A stretch of DNA of 64,000 bases from Patescibacteria group bacterium (GTDB lineage: Bacteria; Patescibacteriota; Minisyncoccia; Minisyncoccales; Staskawiczbacteraceae). Shown here one piece after another: positions 20,130 through 34,952 of this stretch (the first letter of the stretch is position 1; each line of letters starts with the position of its first letter). Below the pieces are notes generated by a model. The model did not search any database and had not been told where the DNA came from. It saw only the letters and a list, made by a program, of their open reading frames with translations. The stretch covers positions 9,314 through 73,313 of the forward strand of contig JAHJTG010000008.1 in NCBI GenBank assembly GCA_018829965.1, written 5' to 3'. Both the position numbers and the translations under genes were made by a program.

Positions 20130-20194
20130 AAACTAAGTTTTCGTTTAATTATTTTACCCTGTTAGAGGTTTTATGTAAACAAAAAGAGCGCTAT

Positions 20195-20305
20195 TGTGGC
20201 AACTACCTACTTTCGCGACAAAATCACTATCATCGGCCTTAGAGTATTTCACTTCCGAGTTCGGAATGGGATCGGGTGGGACAACTCTAGTATAGTCGCC
20301 ACAGC
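20195..20305 (-). rRNA. rrf: 5S rRNA
   Basis: Reverse complement reads gcuguggcgacuauacuagaguugucccacccgaucccauuccgaacucggaagugaaauacucuaaggccgaugauagu..., the canonical 5S core. Confidence 0.9.
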
Positions 20306-20697
20306 AACGCTCTTTTTTAAACCCAGTTAAATAATTTTGCTTTTTCAAAATTAATGCAAAGCATTATTTAACGAGGTAAAGAATCAAAATAAAATAATGA
20401 ATAGCTAAAATCTGTATCTATCCTTATTCTTCCGCCTAAACTTTCTTGCGAAAATCTTGGCGGAGAAGCAAAGAATTTAACAATGATTTATTAGTACTTC
20501 TCGGCTGAATGGGTTGCCCCACTTACACCTGAAGCCTATCAACCTTGTCATCTTCAAGGAATCTAGGAGTTCTAATCTTGAGGTGGGTTTCGCGCTTAGA
20601 TGCTTTCAGCGCTTATCCCTTCCTAACTTAGCTACCCAGCAATGCTCCTGGCGGAACAACTGGTACACCAGAGGTTAGTCCAACCCGGTCCTCTCGT

Positions 20698-21461
20698 CAC
20701 ATAATCTTCTATCACTAGAAGTGTAGACTATATCTTCATCCCGCCTAGCGGGAGTCGGCGTATTATGATGGGTTTAAAGCCACCATCCTTCCTTAAAATA
20801 ATGATTTTAAGAAAAAGTCGTTACGGGGTCATATCTAAAATTTTTAATAATTCTTGCTTTGTTTTCTTTTTCTTGGCTATATAGTTATCCGATTGAATGG
20901 CTATAATATAATTTACTATCTTTTTTAATTCGTTTTTTGTTAAACAATTTTTCCTTTTCTTAGAAAAAAGACAAACAGCTTTATATAGTGCTTTCGCCTG
21001 CTTTTGTTTAAAACGAATAAAAGGTATTAAATCTTTTAGGATATTTTCTATTTGCTTGAATCCATTTATTCTTAATTCACTCATTCCGTCGTTTCTTTGA
21101 GAAAAATATCCTATACCAAGTTTTTTCTTTATCCAATGGAGTGGTTTTTCGTGACGACTATCTTGATAAAAACAGATAGTAGCCATTAAGCGCCAATTTG
21201 TTTTACCATCTTTGCGCTTCTTAATTTGAAGCATTAAGCTTCCGTCTCCATCGAGAAAACCTGCGATATAAGCTAAATTTATTTTAGATTGACTTCCCAC
21301 GGTATTATCTTAATAATTATAATTTCTGGTCCTCAAGTAAATTGTACCATAATTAATGGACCGATTGCAATTATGGTTATCAACGAACCAGATATATTAA
21401 GGTTTCACCGTTATTAGCCGAATTGTCATCGTGGATTACTCCACGAAGTAGCAAATTTCTT
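20698..21461 (-). mobile_element. Group I intron in the 23S sarcin-ricin loop
   Basis: Exons rejoin as CCCUAGU|ACGAGAGGACCGG. The intron follows U and ends in G. It contains AAUACCGUGGGAAG, CCCCGUAA.., and GAUAUAGUCU (S element). Confidence 0.85.
20821..21300 (-). CDS. LAGLIDADG homing endonuclease, single-motif (I-CreI-like, presumably homodimeric); GTG start
   Basis: LAYIAGFLDGDGSL near the N-terminus; 159 aa; lies wholly inside the intron. Confidence 0.9.
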   Translation of the reverse strand: MGSQSKINLAYIAGFLDGDGSLMLQIKKRKDGKTNWRLMATICFYQDSRHEKPLHWIKKKLGIGYFSQRNDGMSELRINGFKQIENILKDLIPFIRFKQKQAKALYKAVCLFSKKRKNCLTKNELKKIVNYIIAIQSDNYIAKKKKTKQELLKILDMTP

Positions 21462-21523
21462 ACTAGGGTCAGAGCCTCTCAAAACTCTACGATCGCGGTA
21501 GATAAGGACCAACCTGTCTCACG

Positions 21524-22214
21524 CATATTTGTCATTTATTACTAAATGTATGGACTATACCACTACCCAAATTAATTGGGTAATCGACGTTTTAGCCGCC
21601 GTTAGGCGACTCCGACCGATTAAGGTCAAGTCTCTACGGGGTCGATGTATACACCTTTCGATTCTTTGAATAATTTAATTCACGAAAAGTATCAATTAAT
21701 TTAGCAAGTTTATTAAAATCTTTCTGGCATTTAACTTTACTTTTTTGAACAATAATTTTTTTCAGGAGATTTATTTGAGCTTTCTTCATTAATACATACG
21801 GGCCAACGAGTCCGATAAATTTATTTATCCCCTCTTGGGTCCCAATAATATATTCGAGAATTCCATCTTTTCTAACCCTTAAATATCCTAAATTAATTAA
21901 AGCACAAACTTTAGCAAAATTATTTTGGTTTTTCTGTGATTGGAATAACACAATGTAATTTACAACTTGGAAACCATACTTATAAGTTTTGTTTGGTTTT
22001 AGTTGCGCATATACACTACCATCCCCATCAAGAAATCCAGCCAAATATGATCTTTGTGTTTGCGAAATTAATTTTTTCATACACGACTTCCCTCGGTATT
22101 ATCCTATCATACGACAGATTATAATGAAAGGACTTCACCGATATGAGTCGATTTATTCACTGTAATATTACTATTACAGGCCGCCTAGCTTGTTAACAGA
22201 TCAAGCTTTAGTCG
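21524..22214 (-). mobile_element. Group I intron in 23S domain V (after ~U2593, the I-CreI-type site)
   Basis: Exons rejoin as GGGUUCAAACCGU|CGUGAGACAGGUUGG. Core elements AAUACCGAGGGAAG, CCCCGUAGAGACUUGAC, GGUAUAGUCC. Confidence 0.85.
21634..22080 (-). CDS. LAGLIDADG homing endonuclease, I-CreI family
   Basis: SYLAGFLDGDGSVYAQLKPNKTYKYGFQV aligns by eye with I-CreI YLAGFVDGDGSIIAQIKPNQSYKFKHQL; 148 aa. Confidence 0.9.
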   Translation of the reverse strand: MKKLISQTQRSYLAGFLDGDGSVYAQLKPNKTYKYGFQVVNYIVLFQSQKNQNNFAKVCALINLGYLRVRKDGILEYIIGTQEGINKFIGLVGPYVLMKKAQINLLKKIIVQKSKVKCQKDFNKLAKLIDTFRELNYSKNRKVYTSTP

Positions 22215-22307
22215 ACGGTTTGAACCCAGCTCACGTAACACTTTAATTGGCGAACAGCCAAACCCTTGGGAGCGGCTTCACCCCCAGGATGTGTTGAGCC
22301 GACATCG

Positions 22308-22592
22308 CTGTCGGTAATTTTTCTCTCCTTACAGAGAGGTTCGGACTATATCTTCACCCTTTCTCAATAAGAAAGGGGCTGGCGTGTTAGCTCTCCAATT
22401 TTTTGGAGAACTCCGACTATTAAAAGTCAAGTCTCTACAGGGTTATAACCCAATCTTTTTAAGAATTGAGTTAAACTTCCCACGGTATTATCGTTTAGTT
22501 TTACTAATTTTACCATATGAACTAAGTACGATTCCACCGTTATAAGCCAGATTTTTGGTATAGCATTACTGCTATAGCACCCCGATTTGTTA
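22308..22592 (-). mobile_element. ORF-less group I intron in 23S domain V (after ~U2500) with a homing-endonuclease-gene relic
   Basis: Exons rejoin as GUUCGGCACCU|CGAUGUCGGCUC. Keeps AAUACCGUGGGAAG, CCUGUAGAGACUUGAC, GAUAUAGUCC. Only an 18-codon remnant (MGSLTQFLKRLGYNPVET*) lies between them. Confidence 0.8.
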
Positions 22593-23209
22593 AGGTGCCG
22601 AACAGAGCCGTCGCTATGGACGCTCGGGCTCTACCAGCCTGTTATCCCCGGAGTAGCTTTTGGTTGATGATCTTTCGCGGTTCTAATAACCACGATCGGT
22701 TCACTAAGTTCTGGTTTCCCAACTGCGCGACATATCCGTCTTGCAGTAAAGCCGGCATTTGGCTTTGCCCTATCGCTCCGATTTCCATCCGGAGCTAGCC
22801 GACCTTATAAACGCCTCCATTACCTTTTAGGAGGCAAGTGCCCCACTTAAACTGCCCATTAAACACTGTCTCCGCCTAAGGCGGATTAGAATCAGGGTTT
22901 TTAAAGGATGGTGTTTCATCGGCGACTCCACCCTGTCCGAAAACAAGGTTTCAAAGTCTCCCATCTACGCTACGCATTAAAAACCAAAACTCAATATCTA
23001 ACTACAGTAAAGCTTCCGGGGTCTTTCCGTCTAGCCGCGATTAACCGGCATCTTCACCGGTATTGCATTTTCACCGGGCTCCTCGTTGAGACAGTTCTCT
23101 AGTCGTTAAGCCATTCATGCGGGCCGGAACTTACCCGGCAAGGGATTACGCTACCTTTGGACGGTTATAGTTACCGCCGACGTTCACTGGTGCTTCAATC
23201 AATGAGCCC

Positions 23210-23320
23210 CACTCCGCTCCTTACTTCGTAAGAGCTTCGAAGGGGCAGGTATTCTTTTTTTCAGAATACTTGTCCTGCGTAGCTTTTTTTACGAAACAAA
23301 AAGCGAAGTAGGACCCTCAA
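23210..23320 (-). repeat. 23S hairpin insertion 1 (domain IV, ~E. coli 1860 region)
   Basis: ~110 extra nt relative to E. coli, with nested hairpins (caggtattc-ttttttt-cagaatacttg). Confidence 0.6.
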
Positions 23321-23427
23321 CTTTAACATTCCAGCACTGGTCAGGCTTCACCCCCTATACATCCTCTTACGAGTTAGCAGAGAGCTGTGTTTTTGATAAA
23401 CAGTCGCTAGAGATACGTTAGCTGCGT

Positions 23428-23572
23428 CCCACCGCACCTCGCTATGCTCGGTACTACCGCGGATTAACACGGATTTTAACTGATTAACACGGATAAAATA
23501 TCCGTATGAATCCAGTCGTATCCGCATGTATCCGTGGTACCAAACGCAGTGAGGTACGGTAGGAAGGCCATA
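23428..23572 (-). repeat. 23S hairpin insertion 2 (variable helix ~E. coli 1730)
   Basis: Outer arms cctcgctatgctcgg / ccaaacgcagtgagg enclose CGGAT-rich modules (family I, also at 38245-38300). Confidence 0.7.
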
Positions 23573-24712
23573 TTGCGAACTTACGGCCGCTTTTTTGCCG
23601 AGTTCCTTAACGAGGAATCACCCGTTCATCTTGGCACACTTACGCCGACCCACCTGTGTCGGTTTACGGTACGGTTCCCATTTTTTTAACCCTACGAGCT
23701 TTTCTAGACAACGCGCTCATCCGAATCGCCAGTGCCGAAGCACCAACTTTTCTCATTCCTTAGATTACTCCTAAGAACAAGAACATAAATCCAATAATTT
23801 GCTCGGACTACTGTGTTGTGTCACTCTTCAGAAAAAAATGGAAGGGACGGAATATTAACCGTCTAACCATTAGGTACGCCTTTCGGCTTCCCCTTAGGAC
23901 CGCCTAACCCTTGGCTGATTGCCATTGCCAAGGAACCCTTGGGTTTTCGATGTCCCGGTATTTCACCGAGATTGCGGTTACTCATGCCAACATTCTCTCT
24001 TCTTAACGCTCCACCAGACCTCACAGTCTAGCTTCGCAGCGATAAGAATGCTCTCCTACCACGCATAAAAACCTGAGTTTCTATGCATCCATATCTTCGG
24101 TATTAAGCTTTAGTCCCGATGAATCTTCGGCGCACTTTGCCTATATAGGACAGTGAGTTGTTACACACTCTTTAAAAGATAGCTACCTCTAAGCTAACTT
24201 CCTGCCTGTAAAGGGCAAAATACTTCCTTAATCTACACTTAGCTTAATTTTGGGACCTTAGATGATGATCTGGACTGTTCTCCTTACGACCATGGAGCTT
24301 AGCCCCCACAGTCTAACTGCCTTTTTGACGATGCTGGTATTCGGAGTTTAATTAGAATATCTGAGCGAAGCCCAAGAAATTCTATTTAGTGCTCTACCCC
24401 CAGCACCTAAACAAAAGACGCTAGCCCTAAAGCTATGTCGGAGAGAACCAGCTATTACCAAGCTCGATTAGCTTATCACTTCTTACCACAGGTCATCCCA
24501 GAGTATTGCACGGCTCAAGGGTTCGGACCTCCCCCGCTCTTTCGAGAGGGTTCATCCTGCCCATGGCAAGCTCGCCTGGCTTCGGGTCTCAACCACTCAG
24601 CTTAATTGTTTGCGCTATTAACGCTCGCTTTCGCTATGCCTCCACCCCGTAAGGGTTTAGACTAGCTGAGTAACTGAACTCGTTGGCTCGTTCTGCAAAA
24701 AGCACGCCATCA

Positions 24713-24898
24713 CCAGCCACATCTCGCTGCGCTCGATGTGTCTGGAAACCCTAAATCCTAAATCCGAAATCCTAAACAATAACTAAAATCCAAAATCAAA
24801 AACTTATTTTAAATTTGAAATTTAGAATTTGGAATTTGTTTAGAGTTTCGTGTTTAGTGCTTAGAATTTCCGCATCGAACAAAGTGAGATGCGGCCAG
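24713..24898 (-). repeat. 23S hairpin insertion 3 (helix 25 region, ~E. coli 540)
   Basis: Outer arms catctcgctgcgctcgatg / catcgaacaaagtgagatg enclose inverted heptamer arrays of family C. Confidence 0.7.
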
Positions 24899-25286
24899 CT
24901 CTGACTCGTTGTAAGCAAATGGTTTCAGGTTCTATTTCATCGGGGTCGCCCCCCTACTTTTCACCTTTCCCTCACGGTACTGGTTCACTATCGGTAATAT
25001 TGAGTATTTAGCCTTGGCCGTATAGTTCGGCCTGATTCCTGCCAGGTTATCATTCCCGACAGTACTTAAGTAAAATAGCAAGGAGCGTAAAGTCGTTTTC
25101 GTCTACAGGACTATTACCTTCTATGGTCACCCTTTCCAGGGTTATTTGACTAACGAAAAATTTATTCTTGCAGAGCAAAAATAAATTTACACTTTACCAA
25201 AATGTTCTCCCTCGGATAGAATCCAGCACTCTTTAACGTTTCAAAAAGTACTGGATGCTCCCGACGCTAAATCCTTGCAACCCCAA

Positions 25287-25425
25287 TCGCTCGCGCCTCG
25301 CTATGCTCGTCGCTTCGCTCTCCTACCAATTACGAATTTTTTCGAATTACGAATATTCGTAATTAGTTTAAATTGGTAATTCGTAGGAAGAGTAAGTGCC
25401 GAACGCAGTAAGGCACGAACGAATG
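25287..25425 (-). repeat. 23S hairpin insertion 4 (domain I, ~E. coli 270 region)
   Basis: Outer arms gcctcgctatgctcg / cgaacgcagtaaggc enclose ACGAAT modules of family B. Confidence 0.7.
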
Positions 25426-25471
25426 GTTTGGGCTCTTCCCTTTTCGCTCGCCACTACTAAGGGAATAACTG

Positions 25472-25747
25472 GTCCTACATCTCACAAATTCCGCTAAATT
25501 TAGAAACGAAATAATGCGCTAAATTCAAGACGCGATGACGAAACGCATAAGTGAAACGATGCGTTGAGGAAGAGCCTCGCAGAAGTTAGCCATTATTTCG
25601 CTTCCCTTTCGGGCGGGCGAATTCTGGACATATTCTTTGTTGCTCGTCGCTCACGTATCGCGTTGCTTATACGCTGTCGCTCCTCGCGTCGCGAATCTGT
25701 CGCAGAATTCGCTTCGCTAAATTAGTGCAATTTGTGAGATGCAGGAC
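25472..25747 (-). repeat. 23S insertion 5: 276-nt element with 19-bp terminal inverted repeats (domain I, ~E. coli 215)
   Basis: gtcctacatctcacaaatt ... aatttgtgagatgcaggac (18/19 complementary), with an internal gcgaattctg/cagaattcgc hairpin. No ORF and no group I core. Confidence 0.75.
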
Positions 25748-26333
25748 ATTTGTTCTCTTTTCCTCTGGGTACTGTGATGTTTCGCTTCCCCAGGTCTACC
25801 CCTAACCTTGCGGTCAGGTAATCCCGTTCTGCGGGATTGGGTTGCCCCATTCAGAAACCTCCGGATCAAAGGTTGCTAGCCACCTCCCCGAAGCTTATCG
25901 CAGGCACGCCACGTCTTTCATCGCCTCAATATTCCAAGGCATCCACCATTTGCCTATAAAATTATTTTCTTTGCGTAAGTTTATTCAACAATATAAATAC
26001 TGCTGAATGAATAGATACAGATTTTAGATATCTATTACTATTATATTTTTAGATGATTCTTTACTCTGTTAAAAAAAGACCCCTGTCTAAAGTTTAACAG
26101 AGTGGCCTAATTATATCTTTTTAAAAAAAGCAAGATTATAATTAGGGTTGTATTTTCAAAGTTCTTGATAAATATACTATTCTTAAAAAATTAAAAACCG
26201 CCTAGTTAAAGCGGTCCATCAGACATATACCCGCCTGCATCGCCTGTGGCGAAAGCCACTGCGGGCAGGCAAAAACTCGGAGTTTAACCGCTTCTTTTTC
26301 TAAAAATGGTTTTAATATTTATCATGTAAGGTT

Positions 26334-26559: not shown

Positions 26560-27240
26560 CTATTTAATCTTTCTCTTTAAGTTCTCAATTGCTTGAGCTG
26601 CAGCATCTTTTCCACCTAAACCGAAAGCCAACATAACCGAACCGGCAATAGCGGCAACAATACCATAAACTATACCCTTGTATAGAATCTGGACTAAATC
26701 TGATTTTGGTAATAATTGATCTAAGATCATGAATATTAAGAAAATCCAAATTGTCCATCTTACGATAGAGGCTGCTAAATGAGCGTAACCGATTTTCATT
26801 TTCTCAACTGTTGCTCTTACTAACTTTTCTACGATATCAGCAATAACTACACCGACTACAAAAATTAAAACAGCGATAATGATGTTTGGGATATAGTTTA
26901 AGATATCCCTTAGAAGTTCTCCAAATTTAGTTAAATTTAGAATATCAACTGTTAATAATAATGTGACGATTACAAATATCCATTTAACGATAGCTCCAAT
27001 AAAAGCAGACGGATCCACTTTTATATCAGCTTTCTCAATGGCTTTCTGCCAACCTTCTTTTTCAAAAAGACGGTTGAATTTTAGTCCCTTCAAAAGTTCG
27101 GTTATAAATCTGCCGATTCCGACAGAGATGATATAGCCGATAACGAAGACAATTATTGCTATTATAAGTTGAGGAAGAAACGAAACCAATTCTTTAAGAA
27201 ATGGTTGTATAATTGTTACGTACCATTCTGGTGTTACCAT
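26560..27240 (-). CDS. Polytopic membrane protein (repeated TM-helix type, possibly mechanosensitive-channel-associated)
   Basis: ~6 TM helices with internal repeats; no catalytic motif. Confidence 0.5.
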   Translation of the reverse strand: MVTPEWYVTIIQPFLKELVSFLPQLIIAIIVFVIGYIISVGIGRFITELLKGLKFNRLFEKEGWQKAIEKADIKVDPSAFIGAIVKWIFVIVTLLLTVDILNLTKFGELLRDILNYIPNIIIAVLIFVVGVVIADIVEKLVRATVEKMKIGYAHLAASIVRWTIWIFLIFMILDQLLPKSDLVQILYKGIVYGIVAAIAGSVMLAFGLGGKDAAAQAIENLKRKIK

Positions 27241-27411: not shown

Positions 27412-28500
27412 CTATCCATGCTTTATCTCAATCACATCTCCGTCTTGAATGATATATTCCTTTCCTTCTGTTCTTATTAATCCCCTCTCTCTTGCCTTAG
27501 AAAAACCGCCGGCTTCAATCAAATCTTTCCAATTAATAACCTCGGCTTTAACAAACGTCTTTTCAAAATCGCTATGGATTACTCCTCCTGCTTGCGGAGC
27601 CATCTCCCCTCTTTTTATTGTCCAAGCACGCGTCTCATCTGTCCCAGTTGTCAAAAAAGTAATTAGACTTAACAGCTCGTAAGATTTTTTAACTAAAATA
27701 TCTGTTTCTGACTCTGGAGGAAATCCCAAAGAGATTCTTTCTTCTTTTAAGAAACCTGCTGTTTCAAATTCTGAAGCGATGTCTACTATTAAATACGGCC
27801 AACTTGTCTCGCCAGAATTGGCTGGGTTATTCTTTTTAAAAACCTCTAAAGTATTTTGATCCACCTCCTCATCTTTTCCGTTTAAAAGATACAGCCTTGG
27901 TTTTAATGTTAATAATTGAAAACTATCCAAAATTTTCTTCTCTTCATCTGTAAAGCTTTGCTCAACTAATATTTTTTCTTCAGTTAAAAATTCTTTTGCT
28001 TTTTTTAATACTTCCATTTCCTTAATCGCCTCCTTCCTATTAGCCCTTACATCACCCTCCAAGCCATGTATTCTTTTCGTAATAGTATCTAAATCTTTTA
28101 AAATTAATTCTACGTCTAAGATCCCTTTATCTCTTAATGGACTTATTGATTCTTGCGTGTTAATAATATCGGAATTAGAAAAAGCGCGAAGGATATATAT
28201 GATTGCATCTGTTTCACGAATATTTGCTAAAAACTTGTTTCCCAAGCCTTCGCCTTCGCTCGCCCCTTTTACCAAGCCGGCGATATCAACAAACTCAATG
28301 GTTGTATAAATCTTCTTTGCAGAACTAGTTAATTCAGCTAATTTATCAACTCTTTCGTCTGGAACCAAAACAACCCCTACATTAGGGTCAATTGTACAAA
28401 AAGGATAATTAGCAATATCCACTTCCTTTTTGGTTAATGTTTTAAATAGAGTGGACTTACCTACATTCGGTAATCCTACAATGCCTATACTAAGTGCCAT
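27412..28500 (-). CDS. ychF: Ribosome-binding ATPase YchF
   Basis: G1 GLPNVGKST, NYPFCTIDPN, DIAGLV.GAS.G.GLGN.FL, C-terminal TGS-like domain. Confidence 0.95.
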   Translation of the reverse strand: MALSIGIVGLPNVGKSTLFKTLTKKEVDIANYPFCTIDPNVGVVLVPDERVDKLAELTSSAKKIYTTIEFVDIAGLVKGASEGEGLGNKFLANIRETDAIIYILRAFSNSDIINTQESISPLRDKGILDVELILKDLDTITKRIHGLEGDVRANRKEAIKEMEVLKKAKEFLTEEKILVEQSFTDEEKKILDSFQLLTLKPRLYLLNGKDEEVDQNTLEVFKKNNPANSGETSWPYLIVDIASEFETAGFLKEERISLGFPPESETDILVKKSYELLSLITFLTTGTDETRAWTIKRGEMAPQAGGVIHSDFEKTFVKAEVINWKDLIEAGGFSKARERGLIRTEGKEYIIQDGDVIEIKHG

Positions 28501-28529: not shown

Positions 28530-28883
28530 TTAAAACCTATAAATATTGCCCTCCGATGGAGTTTCAATATTAGTATTTGCTAAAACTTTTTTTATTCTCT
28601 CTGCTTCATTTTCAATTATTTCCCCGTCGTATTCTCCACTATGACTATGCGCTCCACTATTTTCATATGAAGCAAACTTCTGATCTAAATGAAGATTGAA
28701 GATAAACTCGTTATGGTCCTCATCTTTTTTTATAAACACATGGAATCTCGGGTAACCATATCCCCTGCTTAAATCCTTAACAAGGCTTTCTTCGCCGTTC
28801 TCGCTTTTTCTGCCAATCTTATATCCAATCTTCTTCGCCATATTTACAATAGTTTCGTTAGTGTTTTTAACTATAAATTTCAT
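28530..28883 (-). CDS. Hypothetical protein (117 aa; start moved to Met66 of the tracked ORF)
   Basis: The ORF-track N-terminus reads through tRNA-Ala and repeat DNA. MKFIVKN... begins 8 nt downstream of the tRNA. Confidence 0.5.
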   Translation of the reverse strand: MKFIVKNTNETIVNMAKKIGYKIGRKSENGEESLVKDLSRGYGYPRFHVFIKKDEDHNEFIFNLHLDQKFASYENSGAHSHSGEYDGEIIENEAERIKKVLANTNIETPSEGNIYRF

Positions 28884-28891
28884 ATTATTTA

Positions 28892-28962
28892 TGGACCCTG
28901 CGAGAATCGAACTCGCATCTCCTCGTTGCAAACGAGGTGTGCTACCACTATACCAAGGGCCC
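28892..28962 (-). tRNA. tRNA-Ala (anticodon UGC)
   Basis: Acceptor GGGCCCU/AGGGUCC with the G3:U70 identity pair; anticodon stem CCUCG/CGAGG with loop UUUGCAA; T arm GCGAG-UUCGAUU-CUCGC. Confidence 0.85.
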
Positions 28963-28965
28963 ACC

Positions 28966-29060
28966 AAAGCTATCGAGAATCTTCGATTTCTTTCAGAAAT
29001 CGGGACAAATGTCCCGATGGCTGTTGCCATCGCGGATGCTCGATTTTGCTCGGCAAAATC
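28966..29060. repeat. Family A module cluster (GTCCCGAT / TCGAGnATCnTCGA words)
   Basis: atcgagaatcttcgat, tttctttcagaaatcgggac, gtcccgatggctgttgccatcg, cgattttgctcggcaaaatcg: concatenated small hairpins. Confidence 0.75.
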
Positions 29061-29092
29061 GGCAAGGTGTTCTACCACTAAACTAAAGCCCC
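29061..29092 (-). pseudogene. Orphan tRNA 5' half (acceptor strand, U8, D arm, start of anticodon stem)
   Basis: GGGGCUU-UA-GUUU-AGUGGUA-GAAC-A-CCUUG then runs straight into family A repeats. No matching 3' half (CAAGG... AAGCCCC) before tRNA-Ala. Confidence 0.5.
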
Positions 29093-29698: not shown

Positions 29699-30477
29699 CA
29701 TGCTATTCCCCTATATCGCTATAAGGCATGGACTATATCATCATCCTTTCACAAAATATTTTTGACTTTACTGGATGGTAAGAATTTACAATTTTAGCAA
29801 ATCTCTCGTGATGTTTAGTAGAAACAAATATTCTCCAATAATCAGGGTCAACTTTTTTACTCGGATTATGGATTTTTCCAGTTTCTATCTTTAAACTTTT
29901 GAGAAGTAACTTTAATTGCTTGATTTTGCTTAAATCCTTTTGGACTAACTGAATATAAAATCTGTCTTTTGTATGAGGAACGCCACCTTCGGCGTCAAAA
30001 AATCCTTTTACATAAAACAATTTTTCATAATAGTTATCCAAATTTATAGGATTAAATTTGAAATCTAAGTCTTTACAAAGTGTCTCTAAAACATACATAT
30101 TTCTATCCTTTCCCTCTTTGTAAATCCATGATTTGCAATTAATTTTACCTAGCAAAATTTGTAAATTTTCCAACCACTGCTTATTTTTCTGGGAGAATCT
30201 AATTCTCTTTCCTTTGTTTAAAGAGGCATCATGAATCGCTCCATTTAAATAAGCTATAATCTCATATTTTGTGGTAGGAGTTCGGCGTGTAGTCTCTGAG
30301 GGGTCAATTCTAATTTTATTAGAACGACTTCCCTGCTGATTGTCTGCACTAGAAACATTTTCACTCATATTATCTTATTATAATATGAGTAGTCCTAGAT
30401 TCACAGATGTTCCAGCATACAGCCAACTTTTTCTCTAAGGGTTACCCCTATGAGGTCGCAACATGCAGATTGCACTG
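29699..30477 (-). mobile_element. Group I intron in 16S after U1498 (decoding centre, inside the 1492R primer site)
   Basis: Exons rejoin as GGGGCUAAGUCGU|AACAAGGCACGG. ACAAUCAGCAGGGAAG and CCCCUCAGAGACUAC lie 5' of most of the ORF; GAUAUAGUCC lies 3' of it. Confidence 0.85.
29733..30368 (-). CDS. LAGLIDADG homing endonuclease (double-motif)
   Basis: IIAYLNGAIHDAS and VKGFFDAEGGV motifs. The tracked N-terminus reads through intron core elements, so the true start is uncertain. Confidence 0.8.
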   Translation of the reverse strand: MSENVSSADNQQGSRSNKIRIDPSETTRRTPTTKYEIIAYLNGAIHDASLNKGKRIRFSQKNKQWLENLQILLGKINCKSWIYKEGKDRNMYVLETLCKDLDFKFNPINLDNYYEKLFYVKGFFDAEGGVPHTKDRFYIQLVQKDLSKIKQLKLLLKSLKIETGKIHNPSKKVDPDYWRIFVSTKHHERFAKIVNSYHPVKSKIFCERMMI

Positions 30478-30893
30478 ACGACTTAGCCCCTCTTATTAAG
30501 CCCAGCGTAGGATCCCGTAAACGGGACACTTCGGCTGTTCCTAACTCGCTTGGCTTGACGGGCGGTGAGTACAAGACTCAGGAACATATTCATCGCCGCA
30601 TAGCTGATCGGCGATTACTAGCGATTCCAACTTCATGAGGGCGGGTTTCAGCCCTCAATCCGAACTAAGACCGATTTTGGTGGGATTTGCTTCACCTTGC
30701 GGTTTTGCGTCCCATTGTCTCGGCCATTGTACCACGTGTGCGGCCCAAGTCATCAAAGGGCCATGCTGATTTGGCGTCATCCTCGCCTTCCTCCCAGTTG
30801 TCCCGGGCAGTCCCCTATGACATATAAAACATAGGGCAAGGGTTGCGCTCGTTACCCGAATTAACGGTACGTCTCAAGACACGAGCTGACGAC

Positions 30894-31713
30894 CATATTG
30901 ATCTATAATTTCTTATAGTATGGACTATACCATCTTCCATCCGCCTGAGGCGGATTAGGAGACCAGCGTTTAATGATAGGTTATATCATTAAGTTTTCTC
31001 GCCTTTAGAGAAAACTAAGTCTCTACGGGGTATAAAAACTAATTTTTGTAATTTTATCGAATAATTATAAATTTTTTCTAAAAATTCTCTTGCCTGGTAT
31101 CGCGAGATATAAAGGCAAAATGTCTTTGCTGTTTTGTAGTAATAAATTTTTGTATTACTAATTCCTATCCTTAAAAGAAGACTTTTATCAATTTCTGCTT
31201 CATTTTTATTTCCATATACTATCCTGCAATCATTTCTAAAGTTCTTATCGATTGAACCGTCTCCATCAAACCTTCCTGCAAAATATGCATTAATTAAATT
31301 ATCTTTTTCTAATTTAATTAAATTATTTCGTGCCTCTCTAAATTCTCTCAGGAATGGACGGCTATTAACAAAAATATGATTTCTATTAAATTTTATCCTA
31401 TCTTCAGAAAAAAACTTCAATAGAAAATCTTTAAACTTGGCTATCAAAGCAGGGTCTACATTACTTAGACCAATCGAACTTGACCACCAATAACTATCTG
31501 CACACCAAAGTCCTAAGATATAAGAATCTTCTTCTCTAGAGAAAAAATTACAAAAATTAGTTTTTATACTTCCCACGGTATTGCCATTAATTATTATATT
31601 TTAACATAATAATTAGAAGGTTTCACCGTTATGAGCTGGTTTTTTACCGTATTAAAATAAATTAGTACGGGGCATTTCACTAAAAATTACTTTTTAGTGG
31701 GTCGTTATAACAC
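30894..31713 (-). mobile_element. Group I intron in 16S helix 34 (after ~U1060)
   Basis: Exons rejoin as GGUGCUGCAUGGUU|GUCGUCAGCUCGUG. Core elements AAUACCGUGGGAAG, CCCCGUAGAGACUUAG, GGUAUAGUCC. Confidence 0.85.
30989..31576 (-). CDS. LAGLIDADG homing endonuclease (double-motif); GTG start
   Basis: YILGLWCADSYWW and AYFAGRFDGDGSI motifs; 195 aa. Confidence 0.85.
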   Translation of the reverse strand: MGSIKTNFCNFFSREEDSYILGLWCADSYWWSSSIGLSNVDPALIAKFKDFLLKFFSEDRIKFNRNHIFVNSRPFLREFREARNNLIKLEKDNLINAYFAGRFDGDGSIDKNFRNDCRIVYGNKNEAEIDKSLLLRIGISNTKIYYYKTAKTFCLYISRYQAREFLEKIYNYSIKLQKLVFIPRRDLVFSKGEKT

Positions 31714-31981
31714 AACCATGCAGCACCTGTTCTGCTGCCTTGTGGGGGGCCATCCTTTCAGACGGCTTTCAACAGAATTTCTAGACTTGGTAAGGTTCTT
31801 CGTTTGTTGTCGAATTAAGCCACATGGTCCACCGCTTGTGTGAGTCCCCGTCTATTTCTTTGAGTTTTAGCCTTGCGGCCGTACTTCCCAGGCGGATCAC
31901 TTAACGCATTAGCTTCGCCACTGACAGGGTCGACACTGCCAATAGCCAGTGATCATCGTTTACAGCGTGGACTACAAGGGT

Positions 31982-32961
31982 CATCTTGTAGTTTTTTCTT
32001 ATTTCTTCGATTACTCGAAGGATCGGACTATATCATTTTCTGAAGTTTTTCCATTTGTTTTTCTTTTCAGTAATATATTTTTCTACTACTGCTTTAGAAA
32101 AACCTGTCAATTCACTAACTTCAGAAATCCAGCGTTGTTGTAAATCATGGTCTTTGTAAATAATCAAGACCTTCGGTAGCATTTCTGCCACTTTTATATG
32201 CGGCATTATAATCCGCAAAAACTTCTTTAACTCTTCGCTTGAGCGAATCCATAAACGATAATATATTCTTTCTTCATTCATCCATTTTCTAGTTATTTTA
32301 CCAATATGAACATTTATGTCCCATACTTTTTTTAAGTAATTAGACAATAATTTTTGCTCTTCATAAGAAAAACAATCTGTACAAAATACTCCCTTCCTTC
32401 CATTACCTATTATAGATCCATCATCAAGCCACCATATCGCTAAAGATAAAGGAGTTATTGCATTAAGCCACTTACGGCTAATTTTAAATACTCCTTTTTT
32501 ATGAGTTAAATCATATAACTCTGTTAATTCTGGTATTGCTACGCTTTGATATCGCAATTTTTGACCGCCAAATCCATCTTTTATTTCTGATTTCCAAAAA
32601 TAGTTTTCCCCGGAAATTTCCTTTAATTCATTTACTTTCCAGAAAAAATATTCCTTTTGCTTGATAGAATGACGGAAAGAAAAACGAGCATTTTTATAAT
32701 TATCGTTAATCTTCAGCGATCCATCGCCTAGCAAAGAACCAAGAATAATATCTTTGCAATTTTTAGACAAAAATGAATTTTTCATTTTCTATCTTTTTGA
32801 CTTACATAGTCTCTACGGGGTCGCTATCTTAAAAAGACGCGACTTCCCTCGGGATTATCCATCCGACTAAAATGGGTTTCCCCGATACAGCTAGATGCTC
32901 ACCATATTGTCACCAATATGGAGGACACCATTTAGTCTGTTAATTTCACAGACAAGGATTT
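31982..32961 (-). mobile_element. Group I intron in the 16S 790 loop (after U793, inside the 806R primer site)
   Basis: Exons rejoin as GGAUUAGAU|ACCCUUGUAGUCCACGC. AAUCCCGAGGGAAG and CCCCGUAGAGACUAUG precede the ORF; GAUAUAGUCC follows it. Confidence 0.85.
32033..32785 (-). CDS. LAGLIDADG homing endonuclease (double-motif, with C-terminal helical extension)
   Basis: IILGSLLGDGSL and LAIWWLDDGSI motifs; 250 aa. Confidence 0.9.
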   Translation of the reverse strand: MKNSFLSKNCKDIILGSLLGDGSLKINDNYKNARFSFRHSIKQKEYFFWKVNELKEISGENYFWKSEIKDGFGGQKLRYQSVAIPELTELYDLTHKKGVFKISRKWLNAITPLSLAIWWLDDGSIIGNGRKGVFCTDCFSYEEQKLLSNYLKKVWDINVHIGKITRKWMNEERIYYRLWIRSSEELKKFLRIIMPHIKVAEMLPKVLIIYKDHDLQQRWISEVSELTGFSKAVVEKYITEKKNKWKNFRK

Positions 32962-33239
32962 ATCTAATCCTTTTTGATCCCCACGCTTTCATTCCTCAGT
33001 GTCAGAATCGTCCCAGCTAACTGCCTTCGCTTTTGGTGTTCCCGACGATATCAACGGATTTCACCCCTACACCGTCGGTTCCGTTAGCCTCTAACGTCCT
33101 CTAGTCAAATAGTATCTTTAGCAATTCAAAGGTTAAGCCGATGAGTTTTAACTAAAGACTTATTTAACCACCTACGAATCCTTTATGCCCAGTAAATCCG
33201 GGTAACGCTCGGGGGTTCTGTATTACCGCTCCTGCTGGC

Positions 33240-34072
33240 CGAATAACGAAAAATTATTCGTTTTGGACTATATCATCACCTCGCTTCAGCGAGGGTTCGG
33301 CGTCTGATGATGGGTTCAAATACCACCATCTCATCCACTTAAGGATTCAGTCTCTGAGGGGTTAAAGCACAATAAGGTAATCTTTTTGAAAAACACGAAA
33401 TAATATTCGGAGAGATCAAATTTAAAAATTTATCTCTTCCTTTTGCCCCGATATATATTTCAGGATATCTTTTGCCTCTGCAAAGAGGCGTATGAATATT
33501 GGATTCTATTCCGAAGTTTTTCTTTAAAACCTCAACCAATAATTTATTCTCTTCGACGCTAAATGCATTTGTGCAAAAAGAAAAATTATAATGGTCTTTC
33601 GGTCTGAAATCTAAACTTCCATCGTCCATATACCATACAGCTAAACTTAATGGAGAAATTAATAACTCCTGAATGTTTTTTGGAACAATTTTCTTTCCAT
33701 TTTTATAAAATATTTCTTTGTATCTAGAGATATCTTCTAAAAATTTCGTTTGAAAATACCATTGCTTATTATCTTTCCTCTGTTTTGGCGAACTTTTGCA
33801 TAAATTTTCAAAGCAAGAATATAACCAGAATACATATTCTTTATGTGCTTCTGATTGTTTTATTCTCAAGCATTTTCCATCTATCCAAGCATCGCCCAAA
33901 AGAGTGCCGATAATAATTTCGTGTTGTTTCTTTGTCATTACCTAATTATACTCAACTTCCCTGCTGATTGTCACATTAAAATTATCAACTTTGTGATAAA
34001 GGAGCATTAATGTGCTTTCCAGCATATAAGCCGAATTTTGATTCTGCGCCCGCCAACCTTCATGGGTTGGCC
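33240..34072 (-). mobile_element. Group I intron in the 16S 530 loop (after U516, inside the 515F primer site)
   Basis: Exons rejoin as CCUAAUUCUGU|GCCAGCAGGAGCGGUAAUAC. Core elements ACAAUCAGCAGGGAAG, CCCCUCAGAGACUGAAUCC, GAUAUAGUCC. Confidence 0.85.
33339..33938 (-). CDS. LAGLIDADG homing endonuclease (double-motif)
   Basis: IIIGTLLGDAWI and LAVWYMDDGSL motifs; 199 aa. Confidence 0.9.
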   Translation of the reverse strand: MTKKQHEIIIGTLLGDAWIDGKCLRIKQSEAHKEYVFWLYSCFENLCKSSPKQRKDNKQWYFQTKFLEDISRYKEIFYKNGKKIVPKNIQELLISPLSLAVWYMDDGSLDFRPKDHYNFSFCTNAFSVEENKLLVEVLKKNFGIESNIHTPLCRGKRYPEIYIGAKGRDKFLNLISPNIISCFSKRLPYCALTPQRLNP

Positions 34073-34371
34073 ACAGAATTAGGACCCCCTTATTCCTTCG
34101 GTACTGTCAGTCGCCAAAGGCGACTTCCTCCCGAAGAAAAGAACTTTACACTCCGAAGAGTTTCTTCATTCACGTAACGTCGCTCCATCAGGCTTTCGCC
34201 CATTGTGGAAGATTCTCGACTGCAGCCTCCCGTAGGAGTATGGCCCGTGTCGCAGTGCCATTGTTGGGGAACACGCTCTCACGCCCCCTACCCGTCATAG
34301 TCTTGGTAGGCCGTTACCCTGCCAACTAACTGATAGGCCGCAGGCCCATCTCAAAGTGGATTGCTCCTTTA

Positions 34372-34498
34372 CTCCTCCTTCGCTCTTCATTCCATTCAGA
34401 GCTACGACGGACGAGCCTTGCTTTACGCTTGCAAAGTATAAATACCTTGCGGCTTTGTCCATCTGAAGCTTTTTATGAAATAAAAAGCGAAAGAGGAG
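34372..34498 (-). repeat. 16S hairpin insertion (~E. coli 190-220 region)
   Basis: ~125 extra nt bounded by ctcctccttcgc / gcgaaagaggag inverted arms; no ORF. Confidence 0.65.
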
Positions 34499-34952
34499 AC
34501 TATCGGAAATTAGCCAATCTTTCGACTGGTTATGTCCGTCTTTGAGGTTGGTACCTACGTGTTACTAACCCGTTCGCCACTGACCCTTGCGGGTCCGTTT
34601 GACTTGCATGCCTTATCCACGTTACCAGCGTTCACCCTGAGCTAGAATCAAACTCTCAAAAAATTGAAGTTTGATTTAAAAGAAAATAAATTCTCTTTTG
34701 AATCTAGTTACAATGTGATAGCTTTATTCGAAACAACTTTAAAAAACTAATTATTTATCCAGTTTAAATAGGTTATTTTAAACTGGGGTGCATTATTAAT
34801 TTATCAATGTACGGGGTATTTGTTTTGAAAAACAAATCCCGAAGATATCCATCTTTACTTAAAGATAAATATCTTCGGGGTTCATTCAACCATTTTAAAT
34901 TTTAATTCTCCATCAATTTATATTTTTTATTTATTTTTTATATGCAATTACT

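Follow-up and report, generated by a model that had tools for sequence, protein, structure and literature searches.

A probable mobile group I intron with an I-CreI-like LAGLIDADG gene in the sarcin-ricin loop of a Patescibacteria 23S rRNA gene

We analyzed a 64,000-nt stretch of DNA from a Patescibacteria group bacterium (assembly GCA_018829965.1, contig JAHJTG010000008.1, positions 9,314 to 73,313; hereafter, the window), in which the 23S rRNA gene is interrupted within the sarcin-ricin loop (SRL) by a 764-nt insert. With high confidence, we interpret this insert as a mobile group I intron of IA-like architecture located between U2656 and A2657 (Escherichia coli numbering; site L2656) in the 23S rRNA of a member of Patescibacteria, also known as the candidate phyla radiation (CPR). 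This conclusion is carried by the coordinates of the exons, a covarying ribozyme fold, the family and conserved catalytic residues of the encoded open reading frame (ORF), and a wide distribution of the same intron at one site.

Position and boundaries of the insert

The rRNA genes of the window are on the minus strand; an Rfam scan located the 5S rRNA gene at 20194–20303 and, for the 23S rRNA gene, its 5' body at 22161–25969. Read from the sequence and reverse-complemented, the junctions are ...GGCUCUGACCCUAGU / AAGAAAUUUGCUAC...GAAGAUAUAGUCUACACUUCUAGUGAUAGAAGAUUAUGUG / ACGAGAGGACCGGGUUGG, or, in a longer reading, ...GACCCUAGU / AAGAAAUUUGCUAC ... GAUUAUGUG / ACGAGAGGACCGGGUUGG, where slashes mark the borders between exon and insert. 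The insert starts with AAGAAA and ends with GUG; U precedes it and G is its last base. Rejoining the exons gives AGUACGAGAGGACC, the SRL sequence, which begins at E. coli 23S position 2654, as does AGTACGAGAGGACC. We number intron position i as window position 21462 − i. The features of the locus are as follows.

20698–21461, minus strand: complete group I intron of 764 nt at L2656; same boundaries at 74 homologous loci
21462–21465, minus strand: UAGU, with which the 5' exon closes (E. coli 2653–2656) and which is the P1 5' strand; its four P1 exon pairs form in 55 of 55 sequences
20680–20697, minus strand: ACGAGAGGACCGGGUUGG, with which the 3' exon opens (E. coli 2657–2674), comprising the remaining SRL and the 3' strand of helix 95; located by BLAST, with a stem that covaries across the intron

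A BLAST comparison of the minus strand with E. coli rrlH resolved the last part of the gene into exons: the match up to E. coli 2500 stops at window 22593, E. coli 2501–2595 corresponds to 22307–22213, 2594–2660 to 21523–21458, and 2657–2887 to 20697–20487. The last break thus falls at E. coli 2656/2657, between U2656 and A2657, inside E. coli 2653–2667 and two bases 5' of the GAGA tetraloop (2659–2662). The boundary has a one-base ambiguity, as both the intron and the 3' exon begin with A; we chose L2656 because of the group I rule that U precedes the intron and G ends it. Independent placement came from the Rfam bacterial large subunit (LSU) covariance model, which put the approximately 370-nt insert of an ORF-less homologue (L096) in the helix-95 loop. 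The original prediction, namely a 764-nt insert that follows U, ends in G, and separates exons that rejoin within the SRL, therefore stands by direct reading, by BLAST, and by model-based alignment, in which the insert stays inside the SRL.

Two further observations concern the exons and the assembly. Covariation across the intron is seen in the helix-95 stem bases, which lie at −5 to −10 and +12 to +17 counted from the intron; there are 41 distinct combinations, C-G, U-A, A-U, and G-C alternatives, and 95–100% of cells paired, and therefore the exons are under selection to build a working helix 95. The same arrangement was found on independent contigs (the exact protein on an 80-kb ENA contig as well as Logan contigs) and in 74 other genomes, and it is therefore not an assembly artefact.

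Ribozyme fold and covariation

The secondary structure was drawn by hand from the window sequence and an alignment of 55 introns; it contains a P3–P8 core in which P3 and P7 form a pseudoknot. We scored 63 proposed pairs on these introns, using as controls partners slid by 1–3 columns and 500 shuffles. Paired cells amounted to 93.5%, compared with 36–45% in the slid controls, and changes on both sides were seen in 33 of the 63 pairs (396 cells); on none of the measures were the observed values reached by any of the 500 shuffles. Compensatory changes were present in P2, P3, P5, P5c, P8, P9.0, and P9, whereas P1, P4, P6, and P7 were nearly invariant (99.6–100% paired). The elements of the fold, all on the minus strand, are listed in the order of transcription.

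21449–21454, minus strand: internal guide sequence UUGCUA (intron 8–13), the P1 3' strand; UUGCUAC invariant in the alignment
21429–21446, minus strand: P2 hairpin UCGUGGA-GUAA-UCCACGA; 7 of 7 pairs compensatory, 99% of cells paired
21417–21421, minus strand: P3 5' strand UCGGC, with its partner at 20755–20759; double-sided changes in 3 of its 5 pairs (in 19 sequences, C-G to U-A)
21407–21411, minus strand: P4 5' strand ACGGU, with its partner at 21299–21303; one compensatory change (G-C to A-U), 99.6% of cells paired
21308–21402, minus strand: P5 (CCUU/AAGA) and its distal extension; P5 and P5c covary
21347–21376, minus strand: hairpin P5c within the P5 extension
21358–21363, minus strand: conserved loop hexamer CGGUCC of P5c (intron 99–104)
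21327–21334, minus strand: invariant GAGGACCA (intron 128–135) in the P5 extension
21299–21303, minus strand: P4 3' strand ACCGU, overlapping the GUG start codon (21298–21300); alignment and covariation scoring
21291–21298, minus strand: P6 5' strand GGGAAGUC, which is also ORF codons 1–4, with its partner GACCCC at 20825–20830; DNA-invariant including synonymous sites and kept in ORF-less introns
20825–20830, minus strand: P6 3' strand GACCCC, which is also the last ORF codons; alignment and a compensatory P6 change in one ORF-less intron
20816–20819, minus strand: P7 5' strand GACU after a bulged C; 55 of 55 paired, invariant
20765–20815, minus strand: P7.1/P7.2 hairpins, lying between P7 and the P3 3' strand; two hairpins in 14 of 14 sequences folded
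20755–20759, minus strand: P3 3' strand GCCGA; covariation scoring
20739–20753, minus strand: P8 hairpin UCCCGC-UAG-GCGGGA; Rfam alignment, pairs covary, with a rough alignment of this variable hairpin
20726–20738, minus strand: J8/7 UGAAGAUAU and P7 3' strand AGUC; AAGAUAUAGUCU invariant
20699–20724, minus strand: P9.0 (ACA/UGU) around the P9 hairpin CUUCUA-GUGA-UAGAAG; 3 of 3 P9.0 pairs and 5 of 6 P9 pairs compensatory
20698, minus strand: terminal G (omega-G), the last base of the intron; G in every homologue

In P1, the exon UAGU and the first two intron bases (AA) pair with UUGCUA. The U·G wobble at the splice site, formed by U2656 (window 21462), was present in 55 of 55 sequences, with its flanking P1 pairs at 100%, and at the other end the G before ACGAGAGG, the last base of the intron, was found in every homologous locus. 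P7 is an invariant A-C(bulge)-GACU / AGUC-U next to the J8/7 consensus UGAAGAUAU. Within it, G643 and C736 of the intron form a pair that we take to be the guanosine-binding one by analogy with P7 of Tetrahymena. The position of P7.1/P7.2 between P7 and the P3 3' strand is typical of subgroup IA, and the fold therefore has a subgroup IA-like architecture.

Rfam models recovered the intron in part. Under permissive filters, Intron_gpI (RF00028) matched the window with 26.6 bits (E 1.4e-4) over the 3' part only (P8, J8/7, P7', and P9), whereas it matched the ORF-less L096 over the whole model with 40 bits (E 1.3e-8). We attribute the weak match in the window to the 480-nt ORF that splits the core rather than to an aberrant ribozyme. 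The covarying core together with these weak but significant matches bears out the group I assignment of the original prediction, and the S-like element GAUAUAGUCU that it had noted in the insert proved to be J8/7 with the P7 3' strand. A group II intron was also considered and rejected: the ends AAGAAA/GUG are not the 5' GUGYG and 3' AY of that class, and no Rfam group II model matched even at E values up to 10.

The encoded endonuclease

20821–21300, minus strand: 159-aa single-motif LAGLIDADG ORF in the P6 loop, with a GUG start and a UAA stop in J6/7; ORF call, Pfam, and alignments

The ORF, which had likewise been predicted with its GTG start, scored 47.9 bits against Pfam LAGLIDADG_1 (cut-off 23.1), with the motif stretch ...LAYIAGFLDGDGSL.... 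The 159-aa protein aligned over its full length to I-CreI, I-MsoI, and I-CvuI (E ~1e-14 to 1e-16; ~1e-14 for I-CreI). D19 (in the motif GDG), Q46, and K98 were invariant among 27 homologues; these residues would correspond to the catalytic D20, Q47, and K98 of I-CreI. The alignment with I-CreI agreed for the motif and the K98 region, although the equivalence of Q46 and Q47 was not confirmed there. The predicted product is thus a LAGLIDADG enzyme of the I-CreI/I-MsoI family.

Both ends of the ORF coincide with the ribozyme. Two blocks were invariant at the DNA level, including synonymous codon positions: ACCGUGGGAAGUC, which takes in P4' and P6 with the start codon, and UUGACCCCGUAACGACU, which takes in P6' and P7 with the J6/7 stop codon. 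ORF-less introns of 369–457 nt, found at the same site in a metagenome scan, keep the ACCGUGGGAAGUC and UUGACCCCGUAACGACU blocks with unrelated sequence between them. The ORF has therefore been inserted into the P6 loop, and the RNA constrains its ends.

Homologous introns and their distribution

GTDB species genomes were scanned with an alignment of the 27 homologous enzymes. A relative of the endonuclease was encoded in at least 547 of these genomes, and we kept the best 80 of at least 547 loci. The same intron occupied the same site in 74 of these 80 best related loci, with inserts of 724–1040 nt, boundaries of the form ...YUAGU / A...G / ACGAGAGGACC, and an intact ORF in 73 of the 74 introns. 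Intact AGTACGAGAGGACC was found near the ORF in none of the 80. Related proteins were numerous: more than 100 clusters of approximately 159 aa were 64–78% identical to the window enzyme, for which the best identity to any other sequence found was 76–78%.

ORF-less or ORF-degraded L2656 introns (L096, L098/L110, L090, L108, and L106) kept the core and the P6 stem. In L108, GGGAAGCU...AGCCCC represents a compensatory GCU/AGC change in P6. Such derivatives are as expected for a homing cycle of gain, decay, and loss.

All named homologues of the ORF were from Patescibacteria/CPR genomes. One locus with an L2656 intron (L042, CAILAO010000867.1) is labelled "uncultured proteobacterium"; since its intron and exons resemble Patescibacteria loci, an error in binning or labelling is more likely than a host outside CPR. 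To our knowledge, L2656 is not among the classical LSU sites of chloroplasts or mitochondria. Among GTDB species genomes and the best 80 related loci, use of L2656 is very frequent and so far confined to CPR/Patescibacteria. A catalogue of CPR 23S rRNA genes points the same way, listing "2657" (23IS14) as a frequent CPR site (Tsurumaki et al. 2024, J Bacteriol 206:e00074-24; PMC11270868).

Proposed mechanism and alternatives

After transcription, the intron would fold into the P1–P9 core, in which the guide UUGCUA would pair with the exon end UAGU and the first two intron bases, so that the U·G wobble would come to lie at the 5' splice site. This site would be attacked by an external guanosine, presumably bound at the P7 G-C pair; P9.0 would then carry the terminal G into the same guanosine pocket, and the freed 3'-OH of U2656 would attack the 3' splice site, ligating the exons into an intact SRL. 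The SRL is intolerant of breaks, as cleavage by sarcin at 2661/2662 inactivates ribosomes, and excision with ligation therefore seems the only reasonable outcome. Given the conserved ribozyme core, retention of the 764-nt intron in mature rRNA would be very unlikely. The 159-aa endonuclease, presumably a homodimer, would cut intron-less 23S rRNA genes at or near ...CCCTAGT/ACGAGAGGACC... (putative intron-less SRL target stretch, GAGGCTCTGACCCTAGTACGAGAGGACCGGGTTGG), and repair from an intron-bearing copy would spread the intron by homing.

Several points weigh against this account. The near-invariant P1, P4, P6, and P7 fit the fold but contribute little covariation, and both Rfam scores, 26.6 bits in the window and 40 bits in L096, are below the RF00028 gathering score of 50 bits. 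By inspection, no convincing P10 with the start of the 3' exon was found near the guide sequence. On the protein side, the start codon lies inside P4/P6 with no obvious Shine-Dalgarno sequence. The target is also weakly palindromic: among 17 centers, the best match was 6/11, 3 bp upstream of the insertion site, with 5/11 at the GTAC center, and I-CreI's own site reached 7/11. Because 6/11 is not above chance with 17 centers tested, we claim no cleavage center; such weak palindromy is somewhat surprising for a homodimer. Finally, whereas the structure and distribution are observed, we infer splicing itself, the activity and target of the enzyme, and present-day mobility.

One alternative, which we consider unlikely, is that the ribozyme is active while the ORF is no longer a working endonuclease, being retained as a maturase that aids folding of the intron, or drifting, so that the intron is now inherited mainly vertically. 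The overlap of the ORF ends with the ribozyme core and the weak palindromy of the target would suit this view, as would the acquisition by a CPR ancestor and long retention suggested by Tsurumaki et al. 2024 (PMC11270868). However, the putative catalytic residues are invariant across the 27 homologues, and the core probably needs no cis-encoded protein, given the ORF-less introns found in this family. In addition, a different CPR LAGLIDADG enzyme, I-ShaI, cuts its own insertion site and dimerizes, which by analogy makes homing a reasonable reading for the L2656 enzyme.

Removal by an RNase III-type activity without ligation, leaving the 23S rRNA fragmented within the SRL, is very improbable. 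Short non-intron insertions that resemble processed intervening sequences do occur at other CPR 23S sites (PMC11270868), and the helix-95 stem could in principle form in trans. Nevertheless, the group I core is complete and covaries, the U·G splice site and the terminal G are in place, and by inspection the ends of the insert lie in P1 and P9.0 with no long terminal stem of the kind required by RNase III. The site of the insert is universally conserved rather than a variable helix, and a break in the SRL is established to inactivate ribosomes, as in the case of sarcin noted above. That the locus is a decaying rRNA pseudogene or an assembly chimera with a functionless insert, as the crowded operon (at least three introns in the 23S and four insertions in the 16S rRNA gene) might suggest, is hardly credible given the recurrence of the structure on ENA and Logan contigs and in 74 other genomes, the covarying exon helix 95, the intact ORFs, and the normality of a heavy intron load in CPR, where 82% of 23S rRNA genes carry insertions (PMC11270868). 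We thus retain the mobile group I intron with a presumably functional homing endonuclease as the best explanation.

A conserved hexamer in P5c

The hexamer CGGUCC in the loop of P5c is nearly invariant. It is fully complementary to GGACCG of the SRL 3' strand (E. coli 2663–2668; 3' exon, 20686–20691) and, over 5 bp, to GGACC of the invariant internal GAGGACCA; the invariant CUUGAGGACCAG sits 25 nt downstream of it. We also observed that the internal 12-mer CUUGAGGACCAG resembles the 5' exon CUUGAGG joined to the 3' exon GAGGACC. CGGUCC might act as a distal exon-binding pairing that replaces the missing P10, with the internal mimic competing for it, which would couple SRL folding to splicing; we regard this idea as improbable.

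As no normal P10 could be drawn, position 1 of the hexamer was tested against exon position +12. At first look, U in the hexamer seemed always to accompany A in the exon. With 29 extra loci bearing the rare exon variant GGACCA added, the counts of C/U against G/A were [[31,11],[3,4]] (Fisher p = 0.18), which does not support the pairing. Pairing of the loop hexamer with the internal GGACC was found in 86.9% of cells and showed no covariation in the 55 introns. An alternative partner of GGACC, the upstream UGGUY strand ("P5a"), was paired in 77.7% of cells.

Host gene and neighboring insertions

Among the loci fetched, the 23S 3' exons closest to those of the window were from a Patescibacteria metagenome-assembled genome (86.6%) and from Ca. 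Staskawiczbacteria (82–84%). The 23S rRNA gene of the window carries two further group I introns upstream of L2656.

22308–22592, minus strand: L2500 group I intron, ORF-less, 285 nt, located after U and ending in G; Rfam Intron_gpI 65.9 bits, above the gathering score
~21524–22214, minus strand: L2593 group I intron, 691 nt; core motifs in common with the L2656 intron
21634–22080, minus strand: ORF of the L2593 intron, 148 aa, single-motif LAGLIDADG (Pfam)

The L2593 ORF ends with ...TP* over GACCCCGUAGAGACU, an overlap of ORF and core like that of the L2656 intron; its product is 29% identical to the L2656 enzyme of the same window. The L2500, L2593, and L2656 introns have in common AUAACGGUGRAA, GAUAAUACCG.GGGAAGU, CCCYGUA..GACUU, ACGCC, and the P7.1/P7.2 hairpins. 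GAAGAUAUAGUC is also common to the three, although the L2593 copy is only GGUAUAGUC. Judged by these motifs, the three introns are one structural family. This agrees with the suggestion of Tsurumaki et al. 2024 that introns reach new rRNA sites through occasional ectopic insertion (PMC11270868).

The 16S rRNA gene (~29700–34660, minus strand) is split by four insertions, each encoding a LAGLIDADG protein (LAGLIDADG_2 or _3), and is not adjacent to the 23S rRNA gene, from which approximately 4.5 kb separates it. These insertions and the features between the two rRNA genes are as follows.

33339–33938, minus strand: ORF (LAGLIDADG_2) of the 16S insertion after ~E. coli 453–517
32033–32785, minus strand: ORF (LAGLIDADG_2) of the 16S insertion at ~E. 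coli 794
30989–31576, minus strand: ORF (LAGLIDADG_3) of the 16S insertion at ~E. coli 1062
29733–30368, minus strand: ORF (LAGLIDADG_3) of the 16S insertion after ~E. coli 1420, with a 43-bit Rfam group I match at 30280–30472
28892–28962, minus strand: tRNA
28530–29078, minus strand: 182-aa ORF with no Pfam match, overlapping the tRNA on the same strand
27412–28500, minus strand: YchF GTPase gene (Pfam)
26560–27240, minus strand: membrane protein with a mechanosensitive-channel transmembrane-helix domain (Pfam)
~25750–25466, ~25429–25139, and ~24898–24718, minus strand: regions of the 23S rRNA gene falling in BLAST gaps

The 182-aa ORF that overlaps the tRNA may not be a real gene. The BLAST gaps relative to the E. 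coli 23S rRNA gene are near 227/233, 270/305, and 540/548 and leave ~180–290 nt each unaccounted for; they could be short intervening sequences like 23IS2/23IS4 of Tsurumaki et al., or stretches too divergent for BLAST. A chloroplast or mitochondrial origin, which AT-rich and intron-laden rRNA genes might bring to mind, was rejected, as bacterial genes lie between the genes for 16S and 23S rRNA and the named homologues are all from Patescibacteria.

Significance

The intron of the window belongs to a class of CPR introns already catalogued in 2024, and its biology is ordinary for CPR. Since that biology has been described, no new question is opened here. What we add is a structure backed by covariation, the placement of the ORF in P6 with its overlap of the core, the assignment to the I-CreI family, and the recognition that "2657" is the SRL. 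Even the loop to which elongation factors bind can accommodate a mobile intron, as the loop would be restored by precise splicing, and the locus is another case of homing endonucleases choosing an invariant rRNA sequence. I-CreI-like enzymes of the L2656 family would recognize the universally conserved ...CCTAGTACGAGAGGACC..., and a minor use as meganuclease scaffolds is possible. With regard to genome annotation, the locus accounts for the failure of standard models of rRNA and introns in CPR genomes: the Rfam LSU match ended before the last 23S exons, and the L2656 intron was missed at the curated threshold.

Comparison with known systems

Tsurumaki et al. 2024 surveyed 348 CPR 23S rRNA genes and reported insertions at 14 frequent sites, with LAGLIDADG_1 predominantly encoded at 1917, 1931, 1952, 2593, 2604, and 2657 (23IS6–8 and 23IS12–14) (PMC11270868). 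As their 1952 is the classical L1951, their 2657 is L2656. The insertions at 23IS14 agree with the intron described here in CPR host, 23S gene, coordinate, group-I-like structure, and single-domain LAGLIDADG_1 ORF (PMC11270868). The main text of that paper differs in giving no secondary structure or biochemistry for this site, the enzyme tested being I-ShaI at 23IS7, and it does not mention the sarcin-ricin loop (PMC11270868); one of its supplements has no 23IS14 entry. Full-text searches for sarcin-ricin with group I intron, or for L2655, L2656, or L2657, returned nothing relevant, and a 2007 compilation of bacterial LSU introns listed only L1917, L1931, L1951, and L2593 (Haugen et al. 2007, PMC1995217).

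I-ShaI from Ca. Shapirobacteria, like the enzyme predicted here, is a single-domain LAGLIDADG_1 protein from a CPR 23S group I intron, and it stands alone among CPR LAGLIDADG homing endonucleases in having been tested biochemically. By analogy, the mechanism proposed at L2656 has its best experimental precedent in I-ShaI. This enzyme differs in its site, in being closest to I-CeuI rather than I-CreI, and in its thermophilic source.

The two sites of interest lie in different domains of the 23S rRNA, L2656 in helix 95 of domain VI and L2593 in domain V. L2593 introns with I-CreI-family enzymes likewise encode single-motif LAGLIDADG proteins of approximately 150–190 aa whose ORF reaches into the ribozyme core, and those of the Chlamydomonas reinhardtii chloroplast (Cr.LSU/I-CreI), Synechococcus C9/C1, and Thermosynechococcus have the same P7.1/P7.2 extension and short P2 (PMC1995217). 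The window's own L2593 intron has the same core motifs as the L2656 intron (GAUAAUACCG.GGGAAGUC, GACCCCGUA..GACUU, and AUAGUC). In contrast, the L2656 site is 63 nt downstream, the L2656 intron has a long P5 extension, and the two enzymes of the window, with their 29% identity, must recognize different DNA.

In phage introns of subgroup IA, P7.1/P7.2 are placed between P7 and P3'. Members such as Twort orf142-I2 and T4 td have the same P7.1/P7.2 domain around the guanosine pocket (PMC1995217), whereas they reside in protein-coding genes, and any endonucleases that they encode are of other families (for T4 td, the GIY-YIG enzyme I-TevI).

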